This document shows, in pieces, positions 1 to 32,755 of a DNA stretch of 64,000 bases (within the stretch, counting starts at the first letter, position 1; every line of letters starts with the position of its first letter). Origin of the DNA: a virus (taxonomy: Duplodnaviria; Heunggongvirae; Uroviricota; Caudoviricetes); the IMG/VR virus record IMGVR_UViG_2724679539_000005, positions 1 to 64,000 of that record. The stretch is one strand, 5' to 3'. The notes beneath the pieces are model-generated. The model was not told the origin of the DNA. It worked only from the letters and a program-made list of their open reading frames with translations, and did not search any database. The position numbers and the translations under genes were made by a program.

Positions 1-1215
1 GTGAAACTCAATGCCCGTCAAATAGACACAGCCAAGCCAAAAGAGAAGGCTTACAAGCTGGCCGATGGTGGCGGTTTGTATCTCTTGGTAAAACCTAATG
101 GAGGTAAATACTGGCGACTTAAATATCGTGTAGCTGGTAAAGAGAAGCTATTGGCACTAGGTGTGTATCCTGAGGTTACTCTAGCCGATGCTCGGGCAAA
201 ACGTGAAGATGCGAAAAGAGGTATCGCTGGTGGTATCGATCCGATGGAAGCGAAACGAGAGGAAAAGATTGCCCGGGAAACGCAGTTAAACAACACCTTC
301 AAAGATATTGCCCTTGAGTGGCACAGCAGCAAATTAAAAAAATGGTCTGCTGGTTATGCTTCAGACATCCTCGAAGCCTTCAACAAAGATGTGTTCCCTT
401 ACATTGGCAAAAAACCAATCGCCGAAATCAAACCACTTGAACTTCTGAATGTGCTGCGGCGCATCGAGGGGCGCGGTGCTACAGAAAAAGCCAAAAAAGT
501 GAGGCAGCGGTGCGGGGAAGTTTTCCGCTATGCAATAGTCACTGGTCGCGCAGAGTATAACCCTGCACCAGACCTTACTAGCGCGATGCAAGGCCATGAA
601 TCTAATCATTACCCTTTCCTTACAGCTAAAGAATTACCTGATTTTTTCAAGGCATTGTCCAGTTACTCAGGAAGCGCATTGGTTGTTATGGCGGCTCGTC
701 TACTGATTATCACCGGCTTGCGGACTGGCGAACTACGTGGCGCATTATGGGATGAAATTGATTTCAACAAGGCTATCTGGGAGATACCCGCTTCACGTAT
801 GAAAATGCGGCGGCCTCATATTGTGCTATTGTCTGATCAGGCTCTTTCGCTTATTGGGAAGATTAGAGAAATAACAGGCAATTACCCTCTTATGTTTCCC
901 GGGCGCAATGATCCAAGGAAAACAATGAGTGAGGCCAGCATAAACCAAGTGTTTAAGCGCATTGGTTACGCTGGACGTGTAACTGGTCATGGGTTCCGGC
1001 ACACTATGAGCACGATTTTGCATGAGCAGGGCTATAACACCGCGTGGATAGAAACGCAGCTCGCTCACGTTGATAAGAACTCAATTCGTGGCACATACAA
1101 CCATGCGCAATATCTGGATGGAAGGCGGGAGATGCTTCAATGGTATGCCGACTATATGGATGCGCTGGAGAAGGAGGAGAACGTTGTTCATGGTTCGTTT
1201 GGGAAACGAGCTTAA
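1..1215 (+). CDS. int: Tyrosine recombinase, P4-family integrase (start at or just beyond window edge)
   Basis: N-terminal KAYKLADGGGLYLLVKPNGGKYWRLKYR arm-type motif; C-terminal HGFRHT and LAH..Y catalytic motifs. Confidence 0.9.
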   Translation: MKLNARQIDTAKPKEKAYKLADGGGLYLLVKPNGGKYWRLKYRVAGKEKLLALGVYPEVTLADARAKREDAKRGIAGGIDPMEAKREEKIARETQLNNTFKDIALEWHSSKLKKWSAGYASDILEAFNKDVFPYIGKKPIAEIKPLELLNVLRRIEGRGATEKAKKVRQRCGEVFRYAIVTGRAEYNPAPDLTSAMQGHESNHYPFLTAKELPDFFKALSSYSGSALVVMAARLLIITGLRTGELRGALWDEIDFNKAIWEIPASRMKMRRPHIVLLSDQALSLIGKIREITGNYPLMFPGRNDPRKTMSEASINQVFKRIGYAGRVTGHGFRHTMSTILHEQGYNTAWIETQLAHVDKNSIRGTYNHAQYLDGRREMLQWYADYMDALEKEENVVHGSFGKRA

Positions 1216-1357
1216 CTGTATGAATAGACCGTGTTAAGCAATGGTAGTAGACTTATGTAGACGAACAAAGAATAGGCTATGTCTAGGCTGATCCCCGAAA
1301 ACCCGTACACCCCTACGGGCTGGCATAGCCGTCAGAATTAGGGGCGCGGGGTGGCGT

Positions 1358-2239
1358 ATGGTGAGAGCCAAAAAACAAGATTTAGCATGGTTTGATATTA
1401 ATAATTATGAATTTTTAAATGATTTAACCTTGCCGGACTTGATTCAAGAATTAGAGTGGCGCGATTTTTTATTGCGTCATGCAAAAGATGACACTGCTAT
1501 ATTCAAAGAAGAGTACGATATAAAATATGAAAGGATTTTTTCGGGCGATCCTAACCTAACCATTCTCAATGAAGAAGAGGAAGAGGTCGAAGAATTTATT
1601 CGCAAAGTAAATGATGAAGCCCCATCATTAAGAAATGAGTACGATGATCTTCCCTCATTATCTTCAGCTATGGGGGTTAGTCCAGTAACATTTTCAGAGC
1701 TGGCCATGTACTCTTTCTCATCGATAGATCAAGGCTTTTTTAAAAGAGACGAAGAGGATTGCTACCTCAAGGCAAACGCTATGCTTGCGAGTGTTACTGG
1801 AAACCTAAGTAATTGTTCCCCTAACATCATACTCGTTTCTATAGATTTAGATGACGCCACTGATGACGAAATTATTACCAGCCTGACTCACCTTCTACCT
1901 CTATGGCGAAAAGAGTTAAAAGTACCAGAGAGAGAGCATGTCGCTCAGAAAAGGATTGGATTAAAGACCCTTCAGAAGTTGATATCTAATAGAGTGATAC
2001 CTATTGTTGATCTGCTGATTTGGGGTGAGAAGTCAGGTAAGGAAGTGAGCAATCCGATGATTTCTGCCTTGGTTTTTAGTGATGATCCGAAAGATACGCA
2101 GGCTATTAAGGAATCAATAAAGCCTTTTGCACTTGAATCTATAAGCGAGAGATACACCCGCTTGCTTCAGCTTTATGTAAACAAAGACAGAGAAATGAGC
2201 TTGATAAAAATATCTGATTTAATGAGTAGAGATTTATAG
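1358..2239 (+). CDS. Hypothetical acidic protein (293 aa), AT-rich, integrase-proximal
   Basis: Long ORF with much lower GC than flanks; no recognisable motif. Confidence 0.5.
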   Translation: MVRAKKQDLAWFDINNYEFLNDLTLPDLIQELEWRDFLLRHAKDDTAIFKEEYDIKYERIFSGDPNLTILNEEEEEVEEFIRKVNDEAPSLRNEYDDLPSLSSAMGVSPVTFSELAMYSFSSIDQGFFKRDEEDCYLKANAMLASVTGNLSNCSPNIILVSIDLDDATDDEIITSLTHLLPLWRKELKVPEREHVAQKRIGLKTLQKLISNRVIPIVDLLIWGEKSGKEVSNPMISALVFSDDPKDTQAIKESIKPFALESISERYTRLLQLYVNKDREMSLIKISDLMSRDL

Positions 2240-2436
2240 CAAGCAAAATCCTACGTAAACGTTTTAAGTAAATTTCGCGATTTCCGCTTTGAATACGCTA
2301 CTGTGTATTTCAAAGCGGATAATCTTCTCAAAAAAATATTTTATTTTTATCCGCTATCACCCATTCACCGGTTTGTTTAATCTCCTTTCTGTCTACTGAT
2401 GTCCATTAAAGAAGATGACAGAATATAGGAGTAAAC

Positions 2437-2634
2437 ATGTCTCAATCATTTATTCGTCTTTCTGAGGTTCAACGCCGTACTGGTTACAGCAAAGCGTGGA
2501 TTTATCGGCTCATCAAAGAACAGCGATTCCCTCAATCTGTAAAGATTGGAAGCCGATCAATTGCGTTTATTGAAAGTGAAATTGAAGAATGGATTAATCA
2601 GCGCATCGCTGAGTCGCGTGGCGAGGTAGCGTAA
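2437..2634 (+). CDS. alpA: AlpA-family DNA-binding regulator
   Basis: 65 aa, motif RLSEVQRRTGYSKAWIYRLIKEQRFP typical of AlpA/Vis; good RBS. Confidence 0.8.
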   Translation: MSQSFIRLSEVQRRTGYSKAWIYRLIKEQRFPQSVKIGSRSIAFIESEIEEWINQRIAESRGEVA

Positions 2635-3911: not shown

Positions 3912-4086
3912 GCCAACAGGAACACCACAACCACAAAAACGCTACAAAGATGCCCACGGAGCACTCGTTACTGTCGAAAGCGTGTCTCACAACCGAGTGA
4001 CGTTTTATCGCGACGGGTATCAATCGCCATGCGTACAACCGCTGGCACGTTTCATGAAGGAGTTCGCGGAGGTTAACAAATGCTAA
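3904..4086 (+). CDS. Hypothetical small protein
   Basis: 60-aa ORF coupled to the upstream gene. Confidence 0.3.
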   Translation: MSKPTGTPQPQKRYKDAHGALVTVESVSHNRVTFYRDGYQSPCVQPLARFMKEFAEVNKC

Positions 4087-4604
4087 CCGTCCAGAAGAAG
4101 ACATTTTCACTGGCAGGTATGTCGCCAAAATCCAGCAATATGACGGCAAAGTCAGGCATTAATACAGCAGATACAAGCAAAGTTTATCATTTGCTGGTGG
4201 TCGGAACGGATGCCTTAACCATACCAGAAATCTCGGGCGATGATATTAGCATTGAGAAGGTCAGCGGCTATGCCAGAGAATTTCTGGTCGTAGATGGCTT
4301 TCTCTGCTCGTGTAGTGACTCCACAAAAACCTTCGTCCACGCGCGTGACGTTAACGAAATGAGCGCGATGTACTGTGCTTCTGGTTCTTCCAATAGTGAG
4401 TTTTCGGAGTCCATAAAAAAGAGCTTGCCGTTATGCGGCAACACGGTTTATGGTTATAAGGCACCTCATAAAACGGGTGCCGGGATTGGCGTCCTGAAAA
4501 TTCTGAAGGCGACATATGACGCGCCGAGCGTCTTTTTTTATGTCGTAGGTCTGACTCACCCATTTTTTGGGCGTTGGTGTATAATCCAGCGCCTTTGTCA
4601 ATCA

Positions 4605-4690
4605 ATGGTGGCTCAGGCGGGGGCTTCTTCGGAAGCGCCGGTATCCTTCAGAGCCGGTTACGCCAACCCTGTCTGGGCTACCACCAGCGA
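4605..4690 (+). ncRNA. C4/CI-like antisense RNA (P1 C4, P4 CI type), copy A
   Basis: GGGCTTCTTCGGAAGCGCCGG hairpin with UUCG loop and CCGGTTACGCCAACC shared exactly with copy B at 32687; loop CCTTCAGA is complementary to TCTGAAGG in the RBS of the ORF at 4742. Confidence 0.5.
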
Positions 4691-4741
4691 AATTGGCGTT
4701 TCCGGTGGTAGCGTAACCTGCTATCTGAAGGAGGCTGCCAC

Positions 4742-4936
4742 ATGCTGGCTACTACCCCTACCCAAAAACCGCAATTTATCTGGATTATCGCCGCAGTTCG
4801 CCGCGATTGCCCGACAATTACCGCCAAAATTCATCATATTGCTGCCGAGTCTGAACGCGATGCTCGCCGTTCTCTGGTGCGCGATCACGTCTGCTTTTTT
4901 GCTGGTCGTATCCGCATGGAGGTGGCACATGATTAA
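4742..4936 (+). CDS. Hypothetical small protein, first gene after the antisense RNA
   Basis: Strong SD GAAGGAGG before ATG; SD overlaps predicted antisense target. Confidence 0.45.
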   Translation: MLATTPTQKPQFIWIIAAVRRDCPTITAKIHHIAAESERDARRSLVRDHVCFFAGRIRMEVAHD

Positions 4937-5147
4937 AACCTACGATGTGCATATGGATCCCCTCGAACGCACAAGCCAGATCATCACACTGACAGAAGTG
5001 ATTAACGACATTCTGGTGAGCAACTCTCCCTCACGAGACGAAAGACTGAAGGCGTTACTCGCGATATTGGATCTCGCCGTTCGTGACGTTCATTTCCTGC
5101 TGGAAGGTGGCGAAATGCCAGGAAAAACGGGGGCAACCAATGAATAA
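4929..5147 (+). CDS. Hypothetical small protein (72 aa)
   Basis: Internal ATG with GGAGGTGG SD inside a dubious 355-aa ORF. Confidence 0.35.
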   Translation: MIKTYDVHMDPLERTSQIITLTEVINDILVSNSPSRDERLKALLAILDLAVRDVHFLLEGGEMPGKTGATNE

Positions 5148-6419: not shown

Positions 6420-8771
6420 ATGCGAAACATTGATCTTATCCGTCAGGTTATCAGTGCGTCTGAAAACAACTGGCCTCATGTGCTGGGCTGCCTGAACATA
6501 AATGTCCCTGACTCTCCGCGCCGTCATGCTCCCTGCCCTGCATGTGGGGGCAAAGATCGATTCCGGTTCGACGACAACGGGCGCGGTAGCTTCATCTGTA
6601 ATCAGTGCGGCGCTGGTGATGGGCTGGATTTAATTAAACGCGTAAATAACTGCGACACAACAGAGGCGGCGCTTCTTGCCGCTGATGTTCTGGGTATTGA
6701 TTACCGGACAACGGAAACACCAGAAGCCACCAGCCAGAAACGGGAACAACTGGAAACCGAGCGCCAGCAACGCGAACAGGAGCGCCTGAAAAGGGCAGAG
6801 AAGGACGAACAACAAAGACGGGATACGTTTTCCCGTCAGTTTGATGACATGCGCAGAAAGGCTGTAAACGGCAAATCTGATTATCTGTTTGCGAAAGGGG
6901 TAGGTGATTTTACATTCCCTGTGTTGCCCGATGGATCTCTGTTGCTGGCGCTGGTGGATAAATCCGGCGCAGTCACAGCAGCACAGACTATTACCTCACA
7001 TGGTGAAAAAAGACTCCTGACAGGTTCAGCAAAGCGAGGGGCATATCACGCCATAAACGCACAGAAACGACCTCACAGCATCATAATTGCTGAGGGGGTG
7101 GCTACCGCCCTGTCGTGCCATTTAATTCGCCCTGACGCAATGACAGTGGCAGCAATCGACGCTGGCAACCTGTTGCCAGTAGCGGAAGTCATGCGCAGAA
7201 CATATCCACAGGCACAAATCATCATTGCCGCAGATAACGATCACCAGCAAGGAAACTCCGAAAGTGGAGGGATCAACACGGGGAAAGATGCCGCAGAGAG
7301 GGCCGCTATTTCCGTAGCTGGCTGGGTGTCTCTGCCACCGACTGACTATAAAGCCGACTGGAACGACTATCACCAACAACACGGGCTGGCGGCAGCCACA
7401 GCAGCATTTAAAGATTCGATGTACCAGCCACGGGGGAAAGGGGCGCAGGTGAAAAATCACAAACAGTCAGTCGGGGCGCTGAATGAGATCAGTTCTGGCG
7501 AGGTGTTAAGCGATGATGAAATTGCTGTCCTCGAAGAAATCAACCGGACGTTTACGCATGTCACCATCGGCGGGAAACACAAGGTGGTGTCGCTAAAGCC
7601 TTCTCAAACCGGCGGTGTATCGCACGTTTTCGAGGATTTATCACAATTTCAGCATTATTTTCATCATAAACCGAGAGTCGCCAGAAAGCTGGCGGGATCG
7701 GCGTGGCTGTCATGGAGTGGGAAGAACTACAAGCCAGGAGGCGTAGGATTTTATCCAGTACCAGACAAATGCCCTGACGATGTTTTTAATCTGTATGAGG
7801 GGCTGGCACTGGAACCAATTGAAGGAGATTGCACGGTATACCTTAATCACCTGTTGCAGGTTGTCTGTGCCGGTAATGAAGAGGCATACCAATATCTTAT
7901 CCAGTGGATGGCGCACATTATCCAAAAGCCTGATGAAAAACCGTCCGTGGCAATCGTGATGAAATCTGTCCCGGGCACAGGGAAAGGCACAACGGTTAAA
8001 CCGCTGCTGCAAATACTGGGGCAGTACGCCGCCCACATTAACGGGGCGGGACATATTTCAGGGCGCTTCAATTCAATACTTGCTAACAAGCTACTGGTAT
8101 TTGCTGACGAAGTGACGATCCACAAGCCGTCTGAAGCTGACAGACTTAAAGCGATTATTAGCGAACCGACGTTTAACCTTGAGCGCAAGGGAATTGATGC
8201 TGAACCAATGCCGAATTTTGCCCGGTTGATATTTGCCAGTAACAGCACACAGGTATTACAGGCAGGGATAAGAGAGCGCCGCTATCTCGTGCTTGAGCCA
8301 TCTCCTGAAAAAGCACAGAGCCGGGAGTATTTTGATCGGCTGTACAGTTGGCTTAATGATGGCGGTGCCGCAAAGTTGCTTTGGCATCTTAAAGGGGTGG
8401 ATCTCTCAGGTTTTGACCCTCAACGAGCGCCACAGACCGATGCCTTACGTGAAGAAATCTTGCTGGGGCTGTCTGGCGTTGAATTGTTTCTTTATGGCGA
8501 GCTAATCAATGAACCTCCGTTTAATGGCGAAGTCCGTTTGTTTGCAAAGGATATGGTTAGTCGATTTGTAGCGTGGTCGCTTGAGCGTGGGGAAAAGCTT
8601 AAAGAACCAGCTGCCAGATCACTACTGGGTAAATCACTTGCACAAATGGGGCTGGTGAAGCATGGAAGACCAGACCGAGGGAATGGCGTGTTCTACGAAC
8701 TACCAGAGGTCGGAGTTCTACAGGCTGCGTTTGCCCGTCTGATCGGTATGGGGGGTTATGATGTTTTTTAA
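6420..8771 (+). CDS. P4 alpha-type primase/helicase
   Basis: N-terminal zinc-binding CPACGG..CNQCG, primase region, P-loop VPGTGKGT (D5/P4 alpha helicase type). Confidence 0.85.
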   Translation: MRNIDLIRQVISASENNWPHVLGCLNINVPDSPRRHAPCPACGGKDRFRFDDNGRGSFICNQCGAGDGLDLIKRVNNCDTTEAALLAADVLGIDYRTTETPEATSQKREQLETERQQREQERLKRAEKDEQQRRDTFSRQFDDMRRKAVNGKSDYLFAKGVGDFTFPVLPDGSLLLALVDKSGAVTAAQTITSHGEKRLLTGSAKRGAYHAINAQKRPHSIIIAEGVATALSCHLIRPDAMTVAAIDAGNLLPVAEVMRRTYPQAQIIIAADNDHQQGNSESGGINTGKDAAERAAISVAGWVSLPPTDYKADWNDYHQQHGLAAATAAFKDSMYQPRGKGAQVKNHKQSVGALNEISSGEVLSDDEIAVLEEINRTFTHVTIGGKHKVVSLKPSQTGGVSHVFEDLSQFQHYFHHKPRVARKLAGSAWLSWSGKNYKPGGVGFYPVPDKCPDDVFNLYEGLALEPIEGDCTVYLNHLLQVVCAGNEEAYQYLIQWMAHIIQKPDEKPSVAIVMKSVPGTGKGTTVKPLLQILGQYAAHINGAGHISGRFNSILANKLLVFADEVTIHKPSEADRLKAIISEPTFNLERKGIDAEPMPNFARLIFASNSTQVLQAGIRERRYLVLEPSPEKAQSREYFDRLYSWLNDGGAAKLLWHLKGVDLSGFDPQRAPQTDALREEILLGLSGVELFLYGELINEPPFNGEVRLFAKDMVSRFVAWSLERGEKLKEPAARSLLGKSLAQMGLVKHGRPDRGNGVFYELPEVGVLQAAFARLIGMGGYDVF

Positions 8772-8947: not shown

Positions 8948-9178
8948 ATGATGAGCACACCATTTTACAAAGTGCGCCAGTTAGCTTCTTCCTCTGGCTG
9001 GCAGCTACGGTTTGAGGGGCGTTCAGACTGGCTACCCATTGCGGCATGGGCGAATGTTGAAATGTGTATTGACGGCGATACCGTTGAAATCATTATTCCC
9101 TGCGTGGCAAGTCGGGACGGCTGTATAGAGCCAACAGATATGGCAGCAGAAATCAGAGAGGTAAAACATGAACAATAA
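8948..9178 (+). CDS. Hypothetical protein
   Basis: 76-aa ORF. Confidence 0.4.
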   Translation: MMSTPFYKVRQLASSSGWQLRFEGRSDWLPIAAWANVEMCIDGDTVEIIIPCVASRDGCIEPTDMAAEIREVKHEQ

Positions 9179-10507: not shown

Positions 10508-10681
10508 ATGGCTATTTCAGTAAAGCCAGTATTGATAAGTGAGAAGCAAATGGAAGCGATAAAGAAAATTCAGGAGGAGCAGCGTAAAAAATCAGAGGTA
10601 GGAGTTGCGCCAACGATCCACGAAATTGCTCGGGGATTAATGGATAAGGCGCTGGCTTACACTTTAACTGGACGTGGGTAA
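10508..10681 (+). CDS. Small protein (57 aa), possibly YlcI/YnfO-like prophage protein
   Basis: ATG with AAGGGGG SD; product MAISVKPVLISEKQMEAIKKIQEEQRKK; not in supplied ORF track (under 60 aa). Confidence 0.35.
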   Translation: MAISVKPVLISEKQMEAIKKIQEEQRKKSEVGVAPTIHEIARGLMDKALAYTLTGRG

Positions 10682-10685
10682 ATTT

Positions 10686-12029
10686 ATGGCTACGTGGCAA
10701 CAGGGTATTAATTCTGGTGGTTTTCTGGCTGGCATCGGTGCGCAAAATGAGAATGCGCCAAAGGCAAGCGACATTAACGCAACGCTTGGTCTGATCCGCG
10801 AAAACAATGAACTGGCTCGCTCAGGTGCAAATAACGTTGCTCTGACAGGTCTTCGTGGTCTGGCTGGAGTTGCTGACATTTATAAGCAGCAGCAACAGCA
10901 GGAACGTAAAGCGGCATTCCAGAAAGGTTATGCAGATGCTTATGCGTCCGGTGACAGGGAGCAGATGCGTAATCTTATTACAGCATTCCCAGAAGAGTTT
11001 GAGGAAGTCCGTAAAGGGATGAGTTATGTCGATGATGCTCAAAGGGATGATTATGGCAATCTGGCGCTCAAAGCACAGGTAGCCTCATCGCTTGGTCAGG
11101 GCGCATTTGGCAGGTTCATGATGGATAATGAGCAGGAGATGCGTCGTTTAGGTATCCCTCCAGAAACTATTGCTGAAATGCAGGTTAATGACCCGCAGGG
11201 CTTCCAGCATTTCGCAGGTAATCTGGCGCTGTTTTCTCTCGGTCATGAGAAGTATTTCGATATCAAAGATCAAATGGAAGGTCGTCGACTTGAGCAAGGG
11301 CGACTGGATGAAAGTATGCGTCAGGCTGACATGGAGAACGCGAGAGGATGGGCAAATATCCAGAACGCTCAACTAGACAGGGCTCAGCGAGCACAAATTC
11401 ACTCAGATGAGATGGGATTGAAGCTAATGGAGCTGGGGCAAAAAGGTAAGCCGTCAGCAGACTTAATTAAGGGATTAAATTCTGACATTACCAATTTTGG
11501 CAAAAATTATAACTCTGTCAGAGCGGCGGCAAACTCTCTGCAAGCCCTTAGCAAGGTAAATACTGGCGCTGCCCAACTTGGGATTATCTTCAACTACATG
11601 AAATCTCTTGACCCGCAGTCAGTCGTTCGTGAAGGCGAACAGGTTCAGGTAATGCGGTCTGATGGCATATGGGGACAAATCAAAGGATACATAGACCAGC
11701 TTAATGCTGGAAACGGCCTGTCGCAGGAGGCAAAGGATAACATTGTTAACGCCGCAAAAATCAACGCCAATGCTATGGGGCAGCAGTTTAACCAGCAGGT
11801 TGACGAGTATCTCGATACATATGGAGAAACTATTCCTCAGGGGCTAAGAAAAAGCCTTGAAAGAAGGAAAGCGAAGCTATTTGACGATGTTTCCGGGCAG
11901 CCTACATCACAGGCTGGCACTGGACAGGCAAAAGCGGCAACCGGAGGAATATCAGAAGGCGCAACGGCAACCAACCCTAAAACTGGTCAGAAAATCATTT
12001 ACAGGAACGGAAAATGGCAGCAAATGTAA
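10686..12029 (+). CDS. Hypothetical protein (about 450 aa), Gln/Ala/Asn-rich
   Basis: Long ORF; alternative GTG start at 10674. Confidence 0.6.
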   Translation: MATWQQGINSGGFLAGIGAQNENAPKASDINATLGLIRENNELARSGANNVALTGLRGLAGVADIYKQQQQQERKAAFQKGYADAYASGDREQMRNLITAFPEEFEEVRKGMSYVDDAQRDDYGNLALKAQVASSLGQGAFGRFMMDNEQEMRRLGIPPETIAEMQVNDPQGFQHFAGNLALFSLGHEKYFDIKDQMEGRRLEQGRLDESMRQADMENARGWANIQNAQLDRAQRAQIHSDEMGLKLMELGQKGKPSADLIKGLNSDITNFGKNYNSVRAAANSLQALSKVNTGAAQLGIIFNYMKSLDPQSVVREGEQVQVMRSDGIWGQIKGYIDQLNAGNGLSQEAKDNIVNAAKINANAMGQQFNQQVDEYLDTYGETIPQGLRKSLERRKAKLFDDVSGQPTSQAGTGQAKAATGGISEGATATNPKTGQKIIYRNGKWQQM

Positions 12030-14131
12030 TCTTACCGGAAGGTTTTGTGCTCGATGAACAACCTGATAACTCACAGTTTCCTGATAGTTCACAGCTTCCT
12101 GATGGTTTTGTGCTTGATGCCCAACCAGAACAGCAGCAATCACCTTTGGTTTCACCAGAGGAAAATTCCAGACAGGAAAATGTTGTTAATAATGCTAACG
12201 GTTTCGACCGTTTTATGTATGGCGTTCTCAGTGGATTGATGGATGTTGGTAAAGGTGTTGGCCTGTTTCAGGATATGACACCAGAAGAGCAAGCCGCAAT
12301 TCAGTCTCTACAGCAGAAGTTAGCGGCAAAACCATCAACCGCACAAGATGTTGGTGAGTTCGTTGGACAAGCAGCGCCATTTGTTAGTGGTGGTGGGATT
12401 ATTTCTCAGGTTCCCAAAGGGGCGGCAAGACTGGCTGCCGCCGCAGGGCTTGGTGCTGGAGAAGGGGCTATTGTAGCCAATGGAACAAATAGCGATGTTG
12501 CTTCCGGCGCTGCTATTGGCGCTGTGGCTGGCCCTGTAGCCGAACTTGCTGGCCCTGCAATTAATAAAATAGCTGGGAAATTAACCAAGAAGAATGTTTC
12601 TTCGATTCCAGATATTGAGGGGATTACTCCTGCCGAAGAGAAAATTCGTAAGTTATCTGCACAAGGCAACCCAAATCTTGCCTCTTCGCTTGAAGGGCTA
12701 GATCTAAAACCTCAGAAAGAAATTGTTGAGGCTGCAAATAGGCTTCATGTTGATTCAGTTCTTCCTTCTCATTTATCAGGAAATGAGCAATACCAAGCTG
12801 TAGAGCAAGCCCTAAAGTCACGGACAGGATCAGCGTTAAAAGCTCAAGAAGATAAAGCAATAAGCGAATTAGCCTCTAGTGCTGGCAAGATAATCGATGA
12901 TGTTGCTGGTGCGCCAGATGCGTTAGCTATGAGCGAAAAATATATTTATCAGATAAATAGTAGAATGGAAGCACTAAAAAACCGTAGTGATCAGTTATAT
13001 AAACGTGTTGATTCCGCTCTATCACCAAGAACAAAAGTCGAAGCAAATAACACAAGCACTATGCTGGAAAAAATCGCTGATGATTTAGGAGGGTGGGATA
13101 ATCTTGACCCAATAGAAAAGCGAGTTTTTACAGCAATAAACCCCGGACCAGATAGCATCCTAACGTATGCAAATTTAAACAGGCAAAGGCGTTTAGTTGG
13201 TGATGCCCTAAATAAAAAGCAGGGGCCATACAAAGATGCTGATAAAGAAACGCTATCAAGACTATATGGAGCTTTAGCTGAAGACCAAAAATCTGTCTTA
13301 TCCAATACTGGATACTTGCGAGATTTCGAAGTCGCACAACGCCTTGTAGCTATGAGAAAAAACTTAGAAAGGCAAATGGTAAATCTTCGCGGGAAAACAC
13401 TTAATGGGGATATAGCGTATAAAGTAACGAATTCTCTTCAATCTATGGCAAAAGGTGATGCGAGAGGGTTTCGTGAGATTATGCAAAATACTCCATCAAG
13501 AACATTGCGAAGGGAGCTAGTAGGAACAGCATTAAGAGATATGCTTTCCTCTGGGAAGCGTGGGGCCGACTTTAATCCATCTGGCTTTGCAGATTGGTGG
13601 CAAAACTTGCAACACAGTGGACAGCTAAAGACTTTGGCTGAACATTTGCCAAAAGAAACAATGAGCGGACTATATGATGTATACAAAGTTGCCAGAGCAA
13701 TAAAAAATGCTAAAGCGCATGAAATATCTACTGGTAAGCTGAATGAGTTTGTAAACAGATTTAATCGGGTAACAGCTCCATACGAACTAGCAGCAAAACA
13801 CATTCAAAAAATAGGCACGATGGTAGGCGCTCATTTTGGATCGCTTGGAGCCATTGCTGGGGCTGATATTGGAGCAAGATTGGCGAGTAAAGCTCGATTA
13901 GCTGGTGGAGCAGGGGCGGCTGATGCTGCGGATAAATTAATTGCCTCGCCAGCCTTCCAGAGCGCAGTAAAAAATCTACACGGAAAAGCGCCTGGGCACA
14001 TTGTTGATTCACGTATCAGGCGCTCCCCTCAATGGAAGAGTTTTTTTAACTCTCTTCCTGAACAGGAAAAACGGACCATCGCCAGACTGGGCATCATTAC
14101 TTGGCTATCTAATGATCCAGATAATGACTAG
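12014..14131 (+). CDS. Hypothetical protein (705 aa) with Ala/Gly-rich segments
   Basis: Start overlaps end of upstream gene (coupling). Confidence 0.65.
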   Translation: MAANVILPEGFVLDEQPDNSQFPDSSQLPDGFVLDAQPEQQQSPLVSPEENSRQENVVNNANGFDRFMYGVLSGLMDVGKGVGLFQDMTPEEQAAIQSLQQKLAAKPSTAQDVGEFVGQAAPFVSGGGIISQVPKGAARLAAAAGLGAGEGAIVANGTNSDVASGAAIGAVAGPVAELAGPAINKIAGKLTKKNVSSIPDIEGITPAEEKIRKLSAQGNPNLASSLEGLDLKPQKEIVEAANRLHVDSVLPSHLSGNEQYQAVEQALKSRTGSALKAQEDKAISELASSAGKIIDDVAGAPDALAMSEKYIYQINSRMEALKNRSDQLYKRVDSALSPRTKVEANNTSTMLEKIADDLGGWDNLDPIEKRVFTAINPGPDSILTYANLNRQRRLVGDALNKKQGPYKDADKETLSRLYGALAEDQKSVLSNTGYLRDFEVAQRLVAMRKNLERQMVNLRGKTLNGDIAYKVTNSLQSMAKGDARGFREIMQNTPSRTLRRELVGTALRDMLSSGKRGADFNPSGFADWWQNLQHSGQLKTLAEHLPKETMSGLYDVYKVARAIKNAKAHEISTGKLNEFVNRFNRVTAPYELAAKHIQKIGTMVGAHFGSLGAIAGADIGARLASKARLAGGAGAADAADKLIASPAFQSAVKNLHGKAPGHIVDSRIRRSPQWKSFFNSLPEQEKRTIARLGIITWLSNDPDND

Positions 14132-19381: not shown

Positions 19382-20542
19382 TTACCTCGCATTTAAGTAA
19401 ACTACGTTCTCCTCTTGTGCCGTATTTGTGCCATTGCGACTTATAATCGCATCGATTTTGCTCGCGTGCTCGGTGAGATGCCCAGCTGAAAGGTGGGCGT
19501 ATCTTTGAACCATTTCGAGAGTTTCCCATCCTCCCATCTCTTTAAGTGCAAGAAGAGAGACACCGGACTGAACCAGCCAGCTTGCCCAGGTATGCCTCAG
19601 GTCATGGAAGCGGAAGTTGCTAATGCCTGCCCGCTTTAACGCTCCCTTCCATGCCTTGTTGCTGTCGGTTCTCATCTTCCTTACCGCTGCTGTTTTTGTT
19701 CCGTCGCTTCGGTAGGCAGGTTTGGTGTGGACAAATACCCATCTCTTATGGAGCCCCTGCTGTTTTCTTAATATCTGGCATGCGGTTTCGTTAAGAGGAA
19801 CTCCGATCGCATTGCCAGCTTTTGTTTCATCAGGGTGCATCCATGCCATTTTCTTATCCAGATCGACCTGTGACCACTCAAGGTCTGTAACGTTGGAACG
19901 ACGAAGGCCTGTCGTGATTGCAAACATGACCACAGGGAAGAAATGAGGAGCAATTTCTGCAAACAGGCGCTTCGATTCCTCCTCTGTAAGCCATCTGATT
20001 CGTCCATTCTTAACGCGTGGTGTTGATATTTTGGGCGCCCTGTCAAGCCATCCCCATTCAACAGCCATATTGAGAATAGCGCGAAGTATTGCCAGATGCC
20101 GCGTCTTCGTTCCTTTGCTTGCCAGCTTTGGTTTATACTCCGGCACTGGCTTGCCAAGCCGCAAACACCTATCCCGGCTCATCTCCCAGTTCAGGCGATG
20201 GCGGCGGTTTTCCATCCCGTCTACCGCCTCCATTATTTTTTCTGTTGTTATGTCAGAGAGAATGGTTTCTCTGAAGTGCAACATCCAGAACGATATAATG
20301 CTCTTGTCATCATCAATGGACTTCTTATCCGATTTCTCACGCAGCCACCGTATGCAGGCTTCCTTGAATAGCTTTTTCGGTGATTCCCCGAGATTTTTTA
20401 CTCTCCACGCTTCTGCTTTCAGACGATCGTGAAGTTCTTGCGCTTGCCTCTTGTCCGATGTTTCAAGAGAGCGTCTAACTCTTGATCCATCTGGCGCGAC
20501 GAAATCGCAGTGCCATGTGCCACCGCGCAGTTTGATTGACAT
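19382..20542 (-). CDS. int: Phage integrase (tyrosine recombinase, lambda family)
   Basis: 386 aa; catalytic HDLRHTWAS and LEMVQRYAHL motifs. Confidence 0.9.
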   Translation of the reverse strand: MSIKLRGGTWHCDFVAPDGSRVRRSLETSDKRQAQELHDRLKAEAWRVKNLGESPKKLFKEACIRWLREKSDKKSIDDDKSIISFWMLHFRETILSDITTEKIMEAVDGMENRRHRLNWEMSRDRCLRLGKPVPEYKPKLASKGTKTRHLAILRAILNMAVEWGWLDRAPKISTPRVKNGRIRWLTEEESKRLFAEIAPHFFPVVMFAITTGLRRSNVTDLEWSQVDLDKKMAWMHPDETKAGNAIGVPLNETACQILRKQQGLHKRWVFVHTKPAYRSDGTKTAAVRKMRTDSNKAWKGALKRAGISNFRFHDLRHTWASWLVQSGVSLLALKEMGGWETLEMVQRYAHLSAGHLTEHASKIDAIISRNGTNTAQEENVVYLNAR

Positions 20543-20838
20543 GCTTTAACCTCCTGCACATCAACCGCATTCACCGCGCCATTGTGTCTCACAGACTTAA
20601 GCGCCGCAATGCAGTCTGACTTGCAAATGCGATATGGGCTTTTAGGTTTATCTGGATTTATCTTTGCGGCTTGAAGTCGTCCACTTCGTATCCACTGCGT
20701 GATAGTGCCTTTGTCTACCTTCAGATACGACGCAGCCTCTTCACGAGTGAAGATTTCTTCTTCCACTTGGAGTCTCCATTTATTGGATTGACATGATTGC
20801 TGTAGGTCTGGATATCTTGAGAAGCTGGCAGGCCTCAT
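20419..20838 (-). CDS. xis: Excisionase-like DNA-binding protein
   Basis: HTH segment FTREEAASYLKVDKGTITQWIRSGRL; overlaps int start by 124 nt, so exact limits uncertain. Confidence 0.5.
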   Translation of the reverse strand: MRPASFSRYPDLQQSCQSNKWRLQVEEEIFTREEAASYLKVDKGTITQWIRSGRLQAAKINPDKPKSPYRICKSDCIAALKSVRHNGAVNAVDVQEVKACQSNCAVAHGTAISSRQMDQELDALLKHRTRGKRKNFTIV

Positions 20839-21113
20839 CGAGTGTGAGGCTGTATGATTCCATGGTTACCTCTGCTTTTTGAACGCATGTCACGTAACTT
20901 CTTAATGTGTTCTGCCGTTTCGATCTCTTCTGCTATCCGATCTGCATCAGCTTTATTCACAGGTTCAAAGTCATGATTAAATCGGAACATGCTGGCGATA
21001 CATGTTCTGCCTTTTCGGATGTAGTGAACTTTGTTGTGGGTAGAACGCAGGATTTTGCAGGGAGTGCCGTGGTGATCGACGTACCAGGTGTTAGGAAAAA
21101 TGATTCTGAACAT
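20835..21113 (-). CDS. Hypothetical protein
   Basis: 92-aa ORF. Confidence 0.4.
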   Translation of the reverse strand: MFRIIFPNTWYVDHHGTPCKILRSTHNKVHYIRKGRTCIASMFRFNHDFEPVNKADADRIAEEIETAEHIKKLRDMRSKSRGNHGIIQPHTR

Positions 21114-21160
21114 TTTTACACCTCAGTTGGACGATGTTGAAATTTGCTGCTTTGAGGCCA

Positions 21161-21379
21161 TCACAGTCCCCATTGTTTGTTCTTAAGTTCGATCTCCTCC
21201 TGGCAACTTGCACAAGTCCGACAACCCTGAACAGCCAGGCGTCTTCGCTCATCTATCGGATCGCCACACTCACAACAATGAGTTGCGGATACAGTCTGGT
21301 AGTTCAGACGACGCATTTTTATTGCTGTATTGCGCTGTAATTCTTCGATTTCTGATGCTGAATCAATGATGTCTGCCAT
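21161..21379 (-). CDS. TraR/DksA-family zinc-finger protein
   Basis: CCECGDPIDERRRLAVQGCRTCASC four-cysteine motif. Confidence 0.7.
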   Translation of the reverse strand: MADIIDSASEIEELQRNTAIKMRRLNYQTVSATHCCECGDPIDERRRLAVQGCRTCASCQEEIELKNKQWGL

Positions 21380-21477
21380 CTTCCATTAATCCCTGAATTG
21401 TTGGTTAATACGCTTGAGGATGAATGCGAACAATAAAAAAGGAGCCTGTAGCTCCCTGATGATTTTGCTTTTCATGT

Positions 21478-21693
21478 TCACCGTTCCTTAAAGAGGCCGT
21501 TTAACATGCCGATCGCCAGGCTTAAATGAGTCGGTGTGAATCCCATCAGCGTTACCGTTTCGCGGTGCTTCTTCAGTACGCTACGGCAAATGTCATCGAC
21601 GTTTTTATCCGGAAACTGCTGTCTGGCTTTTTTGATTTCAGAATTAGCCTGACGGGCAATACTGCGAAGGGCGTTTTCTTGCTGAGGTGTCAT
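21478..21693 (-). CDS. Hypothetical small protein (71 aa from internal Met)
   Basis: ORF in early-left operon. Confidence 0.3.
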   Translation of the reverse strand: MTPQQENALRSIARQANSEIKKARQQFPDKNVDDICRSVLKKHRETVTLMGFTPTHLSLAIGMLNGLFKER

Positions 21694-21769
21694 TGAACAA
21701 GTCCCATGTCGGCAAGCATAAGCACACAGAATATGAAGCCCGCTGCCAGAAAAATGCATTCTGTGGTTG

Positions 21770-22327
21770 TCATGCAGCCTCCCGACGGGCAAGAATCCTT
21801 GAGCCGAACGCCATCAACTCTCCACGATCAACGGTCGTAAAGTGGCAGTGTGTACGGGGATATGGGTGCCAGATAATGAGCATCGAGCCTTTATTATTTC
21901 CACTGACGGGTTTCCCGGTGAGTGGGTTAATAAATGCCAGTCGTCCTGCCGTGATGAATCTGACCTCACTGGCGGTTTGTATCGCTTCATGAAACCATCC
22001 GACAGACGTGTCAGCAGGCAATAACATTACACATCCCACACTACTGAATTTGTTTTCAGTGGCTGCCTTTTTAACAAAAGGGGAAATATTGCTGTATGGT
22101 GGATTCAGCCAGACATAACCAGAGGCATATCCCATTGCTTCAGGCCATGAAGTGGTTAATGTGTTCTGCTCCTGTGAGATAAAAAGCCGACATAGTCGGT
22201 TTTTTTCACTGGCTGCAGCATCAAGTTGAAAAACGAACTCTGCATTAAGCGCAGCAAAAATCTCTGGTGGTGTGCACCAGCTGTCGCGATGTTCTGCAGG
22301 AGTATTGCTTCCGGTGAAATCAGTCAT
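21770..22327 (-). CDS. Phage N6-adenine DNA methyltransferase (Dam-like)
   Basis: WLNPPYS catalytic motif. Confidence 0.75.
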   Translation of the reverse strand: MTDFTGSNTPAEHRDSWCTPPEIFAALNAEFVFQLDAAASEKNRLCRLFISQEQNTLTTSWPEAMGYASGYVWLNPPYSNISPFVKKAATENKFSSVGCVMLLPADTSVGWFHEAIQTASEVRFITAGRLAFINPLTGKPVSGNNKGSMLIIWHPYPRTHCHFTTVDRGELMAFGSRILARREAA

Positions 22328-22478
22328 ACAGCCCCCCGTTTATTATTTATCTCCTCAGCCAGCCGCTGGGCTTTCAGTGGATTTCGGATAACAGAAAGGC
22401 CGGGAAATACACAGCCTCGCTTTGTAACGGAGTAGACGAAAGTGATCGCGCCTACCCGGATATTATCGTGAGTATGCT

Positions 22479-23159
22479 TCATCGCCATTGCTCCCCAAAT
22501 ACAAAACCAATTTCAGCCAGTGCCTCGTCCATTTTTTCGATGAACTCCGGCACCATCTCGTCAAAACTCGCCATGTACTTTTCATCCCGCTCAACCACGA
22601 CATAATGCAGGCCTTCACGCTTCATTCGCGGGTCATAGTTGGCAAAGTACCAGGCATCTTTTCGCGTCACCCACATGCTGTACTGCACCTGGGCCATGTA
22701 AGCCGACTTTATGGCCTCGAAACCACCGAGCCGGAATTTCATGAAATCCCGGGAGGTAAACGGGCATTTCAGTTCAAGGCCGTTGCCATCACTGCATAAA
22801 CCATCTGGAGAGCAGGCGGTACGCATACTTTCGTCGCGATAGATGATCGGGGATTCAGTAACATTCACGCCGGAAGTAAACTCAAACAGGGCCCTGGCGT
22901 CGTTCTCGTACTGTTTTCCCCAGGCCAGCGCCTTAGCATTAACTTCCGGAGCCACACCGGTGCAAACCTCAGCCAGCAGGGTGTGGAAGTAGGACATTTT
23001 CATGTCAGGCCACTTCTTTCCTGAGCGGGGCTTTGCTATCACATTGTGAACTTCTGAAGCGGTGATGACGCCGAGCCGTAATTTGTGCCATGCATCATCC
23101 CCCTGTTCGACAGCTCTCACGTCGATCCCGGTACGCTGCAGTATAATGTCCGGTGTCAT
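22479..23159 (-). CDS. exo: Lambda exonuclease (Red alpha)
   Basis: 226 aa, near-identical to lambda Exo as I recall it. Confidence 0.95.
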
Positions 23160-23941
23160 GCTGCCACCTTCTGCTCAGTGGCTTTCTGTTTCAGGAATCC
23201 AAGAGCTTTCACTGCTTCGGCCTGTGTCAGTTCTGACGATGCGCGAATGTCGCGGCGAAATATCTGGGAACAGAGCGGCAATAAGTCGTCATCCCATGTT
23301 TTATCCAGGGCAATCAGCAGAGTGTTAATCTCCTGCATGGTTTCATCGTTAACCGGAGTGATGTCGCGTTCCGGCTGACGTTCTGCAGTGTATGCGGTAT
23401 TTTCGACAATGCGCTCGGCTTCATCCTTGTCATAGATACCAGCAAATCCGAAGGCCAGACGGGCACACTGAATCATGGCTTTATGCCGTAACATCCGTTT
23501 GGGATGCGACTGCCACGGCCCCGTAATTTCTCTGCCTTCGCGGGTTTTGAATGGTTCGCGGCGGCATTCATCCATCCACTCGGTAACGCAGATCGGATGA
23601 TTGCGGTCCTTGCGGTAAATCCGGCATGTACAGGATTCGTTGTCCTGCTCAAAGTCCATGCCATCAAACTGCTGGTTTTCATTGATGATGCGGGACCAGC
23701 CATCAACGCCCACCACCGGAACGATGCCATTCTGCTTATCAGGAAAGGCGTAAATTTCTTTCGTCCATGGATTAAGGCCGTACTGGTTGGCAACGATCAG
23801 TAATGCGATGAACTGCGCATCGCTGGCATCACCTTTAAATGCCGTCTGGCGAAGAGTGGTGATCAGTTCCTGTGGGTCGACAGAATCCATGCCGACACGT
23901 TCAGCCAGCTTCCCTGCCAGCGTTGCGAGTGCTGTACTCAT
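23156..23941 (-). CDS. bet: Recombination protein Bet (Red beta)
   Basis: 261 aa, near-identical to lambda Bet. Confidence 0.95.
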
Positions 23942-23946
23942 CCGTT

Positions 23947-24243
23947 TTATACCTCTGAATCAATATCAACCTGGTGGTGAGCAATGGTTTCAACCATGTA
24001 CTGGATGTGTTCTGCCATGCGCTCCTGAAACTCAACATCGTCATCAAACGCACGGGTAATGGCTTTTTTGCTGGCCCCGTGGCGTTGCAAATGATCGATG
24101 CATAGCGATTCAAACAGGTGCTGGGGCAGGCCTTTTTCCATGTCGTCTGCCAGTTCTGCCTCTTTCTCTTCACGGGCGATCTGCTGGTAGTGACGCGCCC
24201 AGCTCTGAGCCTCAAGACGATCCTGAATGTAATAAGCGTTCAT
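23947..24243 (-). CDS. gam: Host-nuclease inhibitor Gam
   Basis: 98 aa [21 protein letters not shown], matches lambda GamS. Confidence 0.9.
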
Positions 24244-24318
24244 GGCTGACCTCCTGAAAATGGCTGTGAAAATATCGCCCGCGAAATGCCAGGCTGATTA
24301 GGAAAACAGGAAAGGGGA

Positions 24319-24729
24319 TTAGTGATTCAGGCCGTTACCGCGTCCGTCGAGAAAAACTTCCACGAGCAAATCACGGGTATAAGTGCGCTCGATGCCGCGA
24401 TGCAGATAAAGCCGTCCGCGTAAATTAGCTGATGCAGTCCAGGTACCATCTTTGTGTTTGACCAGCATTCCTGGCATGACCGCACCTCGATTAACGGTCT
24501 GCGTTCCATAATGTTGATGAACCATAAAAACTCCTGCCCGTAAGCTGGGCTGCTGAACATATAGAGACTTCTGCGCGTATTCAGGCGGTGGATGGCCGCC
24601 GGTTGTCATAACTAAGCCGCCTCGTTGAAGCGACTGAGGTATGAGGTGTTGAGTTGATTTCAGCTGGTCACACCGACGTTCACGCGTCCGTTTCACCCCT
24701 CGCACTCCCCGGAGCCTGCCGAAATTCAA
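24319..24729 (-). CDS. Hypothetical protein with Arg-rich N-terminus (possible N-like antiterminator; uncertain)
   Basis: First leftward ORF downstream of putative OL; N-terminus [16 protein letters not shown]. Confidence 0.3.
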
Positions 24730-24799
24730 GCTGCGGATCTAAGCGGTCATCGCAACGGTGAATCAGGCGGTTGCCGTATCGTTGTGTTGTTGCGACATG

Positions 24800-24860
24800 G
24801 TAATAATAGCTATTGCTATTGGTGGTATCAATACTTATTGCTATTGATTGATGTGTTTTG
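24800..24860. promoter_or_regulatory. Putative OL/PL operator region
   Basis: Three TTGCTATTG copies plus ATCAATA, the same motif as the cI-cro intergenic region. Confidence 0.4.
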
Positions 24861-24964
24861 ATATTAACTGTTTGATAGCAAAAAGAATTAATTTTGTGAC
24901 TTGCATCGCATAGCGATAACTGAAGGGAGGTTGTGGTGGTTTTTCGAACGGTTTGTGTGATGAG

Positions 24965-25001
24965 GGGAGGGGACAAAAGAAAACCCGGCACGGTGGCCGG
25001 G
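24965..25001 (-). terminator. Putative terminator of the cI-kinase (PRM) operon
   Basis: CCCGGCACGGTGGCCGGG hairpin followed on the minus strand by a T-rich run. Confidence 0.4.
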
Positions 25002-25168
25002 CTAGATCTTAAAGTATTTATCTTTTAGAGATGTAGATGCAAAATTTTTTGCCTTTGAAAATTTTTTGTCATCAGAAGAGCTTATGAACTCATCTTTTTT
25101 GTAGGGAACCGCTAATGCTGCATCACGTCTGCGAGGCAGCTTACTTACTTCCTCGCACTTTTTCATGA

Positions 25169-32386: not shown

Positions 32387-32669
32387 GTGTTTTACTTCGA
32401 CAGCCAGAATTGGGAGTCTCTATTCGTCTGGCGGCTAAAGGTGATATGGAAATCGTTATGTTTTGGCCTGAGGTAGTTGTAACTGTTGTAGCAGCTATGG
32501 CTGTGATCATCATGGTGTCCATTTACTGGGGTTGACGACATGATTTATCCGGCGCTATATTCTGTGCGTTGCCGCAAAATCGGCACACGGGATTGGCGTC
32601 CCGGGATACTACTCAACGCATACCGCGTTAAGCGGTTTTTTTGTGCGCTAAGCACGGCTATGCCCAAAT

Positions 32670-32755
32670 TATGGTGGGCTGTGTGAGGGCTTCTTCGGAA
32701 GCGCCGGGTTTGAGTAGCCGGTTACGCCAACCTTACACAGTTCACCACCAGTCGA
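32670..32755 (+). ncRNA. C4/CI-like antisense RNA, copy B
   Basis: Same conserved scaffold as copy A; loop TTGAGTAG is complementary to CTACTCAA at codons 2-4 of the ant gene. Confidence 0.5.

Follow-up and report, generated by a model that had tools for sequence, protein, structure and literature searches.

What is the single gene that lies between the integrase and alpA genes of an integrated satellite in Escherichia coli, and does it take part in the satellite's dealings with phages? The locus is found in a stretch of 64,000 nucleotides (nt), hereafter the window, which comprises positions 1 to 64,000 of the IMG/VR virus record IMGVR_UViG_2724679539_000005, and the gene occupies positions 1358-2239 within an element of the phage-inducible chromosomal island (PICI) type. 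An initial annotation, made from the letters of the sequence, had described an AT-rich open reading frame (ORF) coding for an acidic protein of 293 amino acids (aa) with no recognised motif, located in an integrase-proximal slot of variable cargo, and had proposed a defence or anti-defence factor. Here I report that the ORF belongs to the family DUF6387, that the slot which it occupies is polymorphic among related satellites, and that the gene is very probably an exchangeable accessory cassette standing under a structured RNA leader.

A DUF6387 gene and its family

The ORF at 1358-2239 (plus strand) starts with ATG and codes for an acidic, mostly helical protein with a probable winged-helix-like subdomain. 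It matches the Pfam family PF19924 (DUF6387) over its full length, with 132.8 bits against a cut-off of 28.9 and residues 5-269 aligned to positions 6-256 of the 258 in the profile. In RefSeq, the identical protein WP_046076936.1 is already named 'DUF6387 family protein', so the statement that no motif was recognisable has to be dropped. Full-length homologues with 42-99% identity occur in at least ten enterobacterial genera, including Escherichia, Salmonella, Klebsiella, Enterobacter, Yersinia, Pantoea, Pectobacterium, Providencia, Morganella and Xenorhabdus, and an exhaustive HMMER scan yields 292 clusters (at 50% identity) with E <= 1e-3. Given the full-length Pfam match, these homologues and the matching clusters, the ORF is almost certainly a genuine gene rather than a frame that is open by chance. 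A profile search of a collection of 5.8 billion proteins recovered almost no distant members of the family, and scans of IMG/VR with single distant DUF6387 proteins as the query were nearly empty.

None of these matches comes with a function. The protein also matches PHROG 23422 (function unknown), no NCBIfam model matches it, and the source databases give no functional name. In the literature, DUF6387 is mentioned in the gene tables of two papers only, with no functional data. Among the 5027 hidden Markov models of defence proteins in PADLOC-DB v2.0.0, no family reaches E <= 10.

The composition figures agree with the initial annotation. The ORF has a G+C content (GC) of 0.379, and 0.361 at third codon positions, compared to 0.474 for the integrase gene (int), 0.434 for alpA, 0.509 for the primase gene and 0.477 for the whole window. 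The protein contains 55 aspartate and glutamate against 35 lysine and arginine residues, which gives it a net charge of -20 and an isoelectric point (pI) of 4.62. Among close family members the GC of the DUF6387 gene ranges from 0.32 to 0.40 next to integrase genes of 0.42-0.51, and in two distant island members it is 0.44-0.45. As the low GC is kept across the family, I do not read it as a sign of recent acquisition; it is a conserved property of these genes.

A variable slot between integrase and alpA

Upstream, the slot is bounded by the gene for a tyrosine integrase of 404 aa (1-1215, plus strand; Pfam Arm-DNA-bind_3, Phage_int_M and Phage_integrase), and downstream by alpA (2437-2634, plus strand), which encodes an AlpA-family regulator of 65 aa (PF05930, E 9e-20). 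The gap from the int stop to the DUF6387 start is 142 nt, that from the end of DUF6387 to alpA 197 nt. The gene thus lies directly 3' of the integrase gene, in the integrase-proximal position that had been assigned to it.

This position is not always filled with the same gene. Among 5426 complete E. coli genomes, a relative of the integrase occurs in 1258 and the DUF6387 gene in 87. Many satellites with a near-identical integrase have an empty slot. In those of ECO-104 and PK8277, which are integrated at thrW, the tRNA-Thr site also used by the element in the window, int and alpA are separated by approximately 390-430 nt with no gene between them; their integrases are 97-98% identical to that of the window, but their AlpA proteins only 75-76%, which places a recombination breakpoint right after int. 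In other E. coli satellites, the same slot between int and alpA holds one of four mutually unrelated orphan ORFs, each preceded by the RNA leader (Rfam RF02996) described below: the E41 type with 239 aa, the EC2001 type with about 311 aa, the G5 type with 294 aa and the FDAARGOS_1298 type with 265 aa. The leader scores above the Rfam gathering threshold in the latter three and below it, with 26.3 bits, in E41. For EC2001 I took the internal ATG at 2615 as the start, since the annotated ORF runs through the leader. Measured in this way, the leader ends 12-17 nt before the starts of the four alternative ORFs, which have a GC of 0.38-0.42 and of which three encode acidic proteins.

The alternative proteins have no Pfam match and match no PADLOC family at E <= 1. 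They were also considered as divergent members of DUF6387, but the family profile finds none of them, and a profile alignment with hhalign gives the E41 protein a probability of 0.5%; all-against-all BLASTP of the slot proteins gave no cross-matches. The slot is therefore polymorphic, being either empty, with neither leader nor gene, or occupied by a single ORF of 240-310 aa, of which there are at least five unrelated kinds.

The cassette also appears to be shuffled relative to its flanks. Over 66 pairs of loci in the subfamily of the window, DUF6387 identity shows no correlation with the identity of AlpA (r = 0.09) or of Int (r = -0.10), which speaks against tight co-evolution of DUF6387 with either neighbour within this subfamily. 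A Yersinia locus illustrates the mosaic, with 41% identity to the window in Int, 68% in DUF6387 and 91% in AlpA. Such mosaic loci and uncorrelated identities are in line with an exchange of cassettes through recombination within the flanks, which are conserved. Taken together, the comparison of these loci makes it very probable that DUF6387 is an exchangeable accessory cassette under the leader between int and alpA. A variable integrase-proximal slot, as suggested in the initial annotation, is thereby borne out by the genome counts, the empty slots and the four unrelated occupants. The annotation had also named conservation as a core gene in all related elements as the outcome that would speak against its proposal, and satellites with a near-identical integrase lack the gene.

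Two further observations concern this stretch. In the E41, G5 and FDAARGOS_1298 types, the approximately 45 nt that precede alpA have in common an inverted repeat CCTCGT..ACGAGG, which spans the ribosome-binding site of the gene (L003 5240-5293, L119 3590-3640, L120 3560-3607); the alpA allele of the window is without it. The genomes of E. coli SD134209 and O111:H8 7-55 62A carry the IS4-like insertion sequence ISVsa5 in the stretch from int to antA, listed in both between the integrase gene and DUF6387, and otherwise match the window with 99.8% identity.

A structured leader and a terminator-like hairpin

Between int and the DUF6387 gene lies a match to the int-alpA RNA motif (RF02996) at 1276-1343 on the plus strand (cmscan, 46.7 bits against a gathering threshold of 35.8, E 4e-8), which covers the full model (1-71) and ends 14 nt before the ATG. 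The leader folds into a three-way junction, in which an outer stem closes two hairpins and the junction bases are conserved. Its 3' tail contains AGGG and GAGG boxes resembling ribosome-binding sites and ends in AGGG, and a GGGGTGG box follows 4 nt before the ATG. In seven other DUF6387 loci the motif scores at or above the gathering threshold and ends 14-18 nt before the start codon, and in the Salmonella locus it is found in the same place below the threshold. One of the seven belongs to the Oceanospirillaceae, with a protein of only 25% identity. Across all cassette types, a distance of 12-18 nt to the start codon is seen in 10 related loci whose motif reaches the threshold, and two further loci have it in this position with a lower score. 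The leader region is present in 128 E. coli genomes.

The fold is supported by covariation. In the leader of a metagenome-assembled genome (MAG) of the Oceanospirillaceae, three of the nine pairs of the outer stem have changed on both sides with pairing kept, and RNAalifold on 14 leaders gives a compensatory double change in 12 of the 21 pairs. A leader model that I built in this analysis (R1) scores 98.8 bits at the leader of the window. A second R1 match at 22322-22411 (minus strand), before the dam gene of a prophage further downstream, is probably due to chance (21 bits, E 0.013).

RF02996 is typed in Rfam as a small RNA (sRNA), a type that states no cis-acting role. The position of its end, 12-18 nt before a start codon, together with the resemblance of its 3' tail to ribosome-binding sites, suggests such a role. 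Alternatively, the RNA between int and alpA could itself be what is selected, either as a trans-acting sRNA or as an element of the 3' untranslated region of int, with the ORFs behind it being neutral and the protein incidental. The Rfam type would fit this, as would the mean column identity of the leader, which at 79% is far above the conservation of the ORFs behind it. However, DUF6387 is kept as a full-length ORF with invariant residues from 99% down to about 25% identity, and it persists in subfamilies without the leader, whereas elements with an empty slot contain no int-alpA leader at all. As the leader also stands at 12-18 nt from the start codon with its purine-rich boxes, I consider an incidental protein very improbable.

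Downstream of the gene, 44 nt past its stop codon, a repeat search finds a hairpin at 2283-2319 (plus strand) with perfect arms of 11 nt, TCCGCTTTGAA and TTCAAAGCGGA, and the fold of the intergenic region between DUF6387 and alpA has z = -5.3. The counterparts in Salmonella and Morganella consist of a hairpin followed by a T run, and each of the alternative cassettes has its own, different downstream hairpin. The hairpin is probably the cassette's own transcription terminator. It was also considered as an operator, but the counterparts differ in sequence and keep the hairpin and the T run, for which a terminator is the simpler explanation.

The association with alpA

The order int - DUF6387 - alpA on one strand recurs in Salmonella, Klebsiella aerogenes, Morganella, Yersinia, Providencia and Yokenella, in a metagenomic relative with 46% identity and in the Oceanospirillaceae MAG with 25%; the one exception is a Shimwellia contig that stops 135 nt past DUF6387. 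In four further records with distant members (24-29% identity), an AlpA-family ORF is next downstream in all four. These records comprise islands of the EARL/ICEKp258.2 type in 'plasmid' records of E. coli and K. pneumoniae, a Salmonella houtenae island, and a circular element of 17 kb from K. pneumoniae that encodes capsid and terminase. In the latter (locus L021, pKp_Goe_795-4, CP018459, 4739-7126), int and the distant DUF6387 gene share an overlap of 4 nt, with an AlpA-like gene downstream; with its terminase, capsid and tape-measure genes, this element looks like an excised capsid-encoding satellite that was filed as a plasmid.

In a survey of 114 DUF6387 loci, in which alpA was required on the same strand within 900 nt downstream, alpA directly follows DUF6387 in all 11 clusters at 50% identity and in 21 of 22 at 70%. 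Nine loci fall outside this definition; six of them have alpA further downstream behind extra ORFs, and in the remaining three alpA was undetected in the sequence at hand. Among metagenome loci of a distant subfamily (L105, L106, L112 and L116), extra ORFs lie between DUF6387 and alpA, for example an opposite-strand ORF of 325 aa, or follow DUF6387 on a contig that stops short of alpA. The extra ORFs indicate that in this subfamily the region between DUF6387 and alpA is itself an insertion site.

A pairing of this kind could mean that DUF6387 acts on AlpA. The protein might be an optional sensor or modulator of the AlpA induction switch, akin but unrelated to the hypervariable Stl repressors of the Staphylococcus aureus pathogenicity islands (SaPIs). 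It would bind DNA near the alpA promoter or a protein of the helper phage and so set the timing of alpA expression; the different cassettes would then stand for different helper specificities. Besides the cluster counts, the extension of the pairing to islands of the EARL/ICEKp258.2 type and to the 17-kb circular capsid-encoding element (PMC10763509, PMC9964261) is in line with this, as is the predicted winged-helix-like subdomain. So is the position next to int, where different proteins succeeding each other in one slot recall the diversity of Stl, a protein of similar length. Furthermore, the sensing of helpers by Gram-negative PICIs is an open question and their global repressor unclear (PMC6092414). 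On the other hand, the empty slot in closely related satellites means that DUF6387 is not an essential master repressor. It is also read in the same direction as alpA with a hairpin between them, whereas stl is divergent, it shows no co-divergence with AlpA within the subfamily, as the coefficient given above indicates, and it is strongly acidic. I therefore regard a role in the AlpA switch as rather unlikely, even though it would explain the fixed position and is the foremost of the rival readings.

Nor did I find an operator-like repeat that is specific to the elements with DUF6387. A pattern scan gives a perfect GTCTAC-N4-GTCTAC repeat just past the int stop (1247-1262, minus strand) and a GTCTAC-N4-GTCCAT box in the promoter region of alpA, 31-46 nt upstream of its start (2391-2406, plus strand). 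In DUF6387-bearing elements, GTCTAC repeats with a phase of 10 bp occur in the gap between tRNA and int, inverted after the int stop and just upstream of alpA, with related loci showing them at 2843-2921 (L002) and at 6495-6573, 7879-7904 and 9033-9058 (L008). However, GTCTAC boxes surround int in the elements with an empty slot too. These repeats are candidate arm-type sites of the integrase, which bracket int and the cassette.

Predicted structure and possible function

An AlphaFold2 model made from an alignment of 51 sequences, including distant members, has a mean predicted local distance difference test score (pLDDT) of 92.1 and a predicted template modelling score (pTM) of 0.84, and replaced a model from a shallow alignment with a pLDDT of 68.5. 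The predicted protein is mostly helical with two small hairpins. Foldseek searches with the model against the PDB and against BFVD (predicted viral structures) returned nothing at E <= 1e-3, and the family profile, searched against PDB sequences, had a lone match at chance level (E 0.29). The sole resemblance seen is a weak one to winged-helix DNA-binding domains, so that the model probably represents an overall fold with no solved relative and with a winged-helix-like subdomain. Thirteen residues are near-invariant across the family (W11, F12, Y17, R35, D169, E171, L180, P181, W183, R184, P215, D218 and W222). There is no cysteine or histidine among them and they form no recognisable catalytic signature. 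With no conserved catalytic residues, and a winged-helix-like subdomain as the only resemblance, the model suggests that DUF6387 most likely acts by binding nucleic acid or protein and not by catalysis.

What it would bind is a matter of analogy. In SaPIs accessory genes lie between int and stl (PMC6092414), and P4-like satellites contain antiviral hotspots (PMC9122126). In the window, the leader, the ORF and its own hairpin form a self-contained cassette between int and alpA. On the precedent of these systems, the best explanation of the locus as a whole, which I propose tentatively, is that this cassette is cargo, accessory to the satellite and outside its core life cycle. The cassette would be exchanged by recombination between int and leader on one side and alpA on the other. 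As a scan for promoter consensus sequences gave no candidate within the leader, transcription would probably come by read-through from int. The leader RNA would govern the translation or stability of the DUF6387 mRNA, and the hairpin would insulate the cassette from alpA. The encoded protein would be a satellite-borne phage-interaction factor, whose binding to phage DNA, or to some component of a helper phage or an incoming one, would interfere with phage development, with the unrelated cassettes representing alternative specificities. Taken for itself, a role of DUF6387 in phage interference or defence is the likeliest single one, though somewhat doubtful.

Several observations weigh against this explanation. 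DUF6387 shows no similarity to any PADLOC model, solved structure or viral structure, and the Pfam and PADLOC scans reveal no recognised defence gene among the five slot occupants. Normally a good share of the occupants of defence hotspots is recognisable, and defence genes are usually found in many genomic contexts. DUF6387, by contrast, lies just upstream of alpA in the loci surveyed, down to members with 25% identity and also in islands of a different kind, and this fixed place implies that its function could be tied to AlpA. It is absent from genuine phage records, the single match in the phage collection being a bacterial contig. Five of 72,556 plasmid records contain it, and the three of these that I examined are integrated islands or an excised element with alpA downstream. 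Moreover, no int-alpA leader was found in the distant subfamilies, so that leader and DUF6387 are not an obligate pair, and the read-through from int is derived solely from the negative consensus promoter scan. The defence or anti-defence role put forward in the initial annotation is thus plausible but gains no support from these searches, since there is no PADLOC model, no structural match, no conserved catalytic motif and no occurrence in the genuine phage records; the remote homology and structure search that it had recommended led to the DUF6387 family and to no link with defence.

The acidity of the protein allows for another possibility, an anti-defence factor as also raised in the initial annotation, or an establishment factor, which would act as an acidic DNA mimic or otherwise block host restriction or defence on entry. 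With a pI of 4.6 and a charge of -20 the protein could qualify, and four of the five slot occupants are acidic. Yet its charge is moderate when set beside that of classic DNA mimics, and the model has no fold similarity to mimics of the ArdA or Ocr type. Anti-restriction genes are moreover common in phages and plasmids, whereas DUF6387 is missing from the genuine phage records and confined to five records filed as plasmids. I consider this a quite improbable function.

Finally, the gene could be cargo directed at the host, a regulator or adaptor of host physiology or of virulence expression with no part in phage conflict. E. coli PICIs are known to carry PerC/RgdR-type regulators of host genes (PMC6092414, PMC11773190), and the island in the window has a PerC-family gene as well. 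The winged-helix-like subdomain would suit a regulator, and O111:H8 Shiga toxin-producing E. coli and cattle isolates are enriched among the matches listed. However, the spread of the family over many genera and lifestyles, including the marine Oceanospirillaceae MAG, disfavours a host-specific target, and the strict position next to alpA would remain unexplained, which leaves this an unlikely reading. The exchangeable, leader-controlled cassette with a phage-interaction factor is the explanation that I carry forward.

The satellite and its neighbours

The setting as a satellite, as given in the initial annotation, stands, with tRNA-Thr, int, alpA, a primase of the P4 alpha type and a PerC-family gene. 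E. coli CE0026f has the sequence of the window in its chromosome with 100% identity, and there the tRNA-Thr gene lies 165 nt upstream of int. After alpA, the island continues with antA, DUF4222, ash, the primase gene (6420-8771, plus strand; Zn_Ribbon_Prim, Toprim_3 and DUF5906), P22 injectosome-like genes and the PerC-family regulator. Of the features by which PICIs are defined, it has the att-type tRNA-Thr beside int, alpA and the primase, all on the plus strand. PICIs are about 15 kb long without structural or lytic genes, and the element here apparently ends before a prophage integrase gene at 19382-20542, which gives it approximately 18-19 kb. The region 10674-14131 contains a gene resembling a P22 injectosome translocase (PF16928) and an ORF of 705 aa whose annotation is that of an injection protein. 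By analogy, these injectosome-like genes hint at a P22-like helper.

The antisense RNAs isrK and C4, of the P1/P4-type RNA immunity, are found at 4461-4538 and 4601-4688. As both lie inside the 355-aa ORF at 4080-5147 (in RefSeq an 'ash family protein'), this ORF is probably over-called. A second isrK/C4 pair at 32570-32642 and 32667-32752 suggests that the window contains another element of this type. A separate lambdoid prophage appears to begin in the region 19382-26215 on the minus strand, with the integrase gene just mentioned and genes for a Dam methylase (21770-22327), a YqaJ exonuclease (22479-23159), RecT (23156-23941) and a eukaryotic-type Ser/Thr kinase (25169-26215).

Significance and comparison with known systems

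The Pfam family DUF6387, the Rfam motif RF02996 and the occurrence of integrase-proximal accessory cargo in satellites are all known already. RF02996 as the leader of a variable single-gene cassette and the pairing of DUF6387 with alpA appear to be unrecorded in the literature covered here; the main text of Weinberg 2017 contains no discussion of the int-alpA RNA motif. In its widest form, the proposal is that in enterobacterial PICI-type satellites the int-alpA RNA is no free-standing sRNA but the cis-acting leader of a dedicated, exchangeable cargo slot, and that it gates the expression of a reservoir of orphan single-protein factors of phage interference or helper sensing, with DUF6387 and at least four unrelated families among them. 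I consider this full statement rather doubtful, but if true, an orphan Rfam motif would gain a genetic role as the leader of variable cassettes, and a rule for harvesting satellite cargo in the Enterobacterales would follow, i.e. whatever lies between RF02996 and alpA. A first sample of that interval gives five unrelated, uncharacterised families, and for one of these the confident structure prediction shows a fold without relatives among solved structures. As the cassette lies directly upstream of alpA, the gene of the master activator, the proposal would also bear on how Gram-negative PICIs couple to their helper phages (PMC6092414). Should no phage-related phenotype emerge, DUF6387 would be an ordinary hypothetical gene of a DUF family in a mobile element.

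Two published islands offer examples of the family. KPNJ2_RS09320 of ICEKp258.2 in K. pneumoniae and ORF 20 of an island in Serratia sp. HRI belong to the same Pfam family, have about 290 aa and are directly followed by an AlpA-family gene, in each case within an integrative element (PMC10763509, PMC9964261). The two homologous islands that I examined (L022 and L023) share about 25-29% identity with the window protein and have no int-alpA leader and, unlike the window, no integrase gene directly upstream on the same strand. In E. coli K-12, the gene yfjH, which I take to be the one between intA and alpA of prophage CP4-57, was considered as a relative, but hhalign gives its product a probability of 0.1% and the gene is on the opposite strand.

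The likeness to Stl, the master repressor of SaPIs, is one of functional analogy, as both lie next to int and are replaced by unrelated proteins between elements; a helix-turn-helix-type domain in DUF6387 is possible. There is no relation in sequence or fold that I could find. A regulator of the Stl type is present in every element and keeps it quiescent, while DUF6387 is missing beside integrases of 97-98% identity; it is also co-directional with the gene that it would regulate and is separated from it by a hairpin.

Another parallel is offered by the int-stl slot of SaPIs and the hotspots of P4-like satellites (PMC6092414, PMC9122126), which are likewise integrase-proximal and polymorphic and carry cargo outside the life cycle. 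The slot in the window differs from these in holding single orphan ORFs of 240-310 aa, none of them a recognised defence or virulence gene. A shared structured RNA leader is, to my knowledge, also not a feature of those hotspots. In its overall layout the island is similar to the PICI EcCIMP1 (PMC11773190), and a P22 injectosome-like gene is found in both. As to the RNA itself, the motif in the window lies between int and alpA, just as in the Rfam entry, and scores above the gathering threshold; whereas the entry is typed as an sRNA, in every case examined here it stands in the position of a 5' leader.

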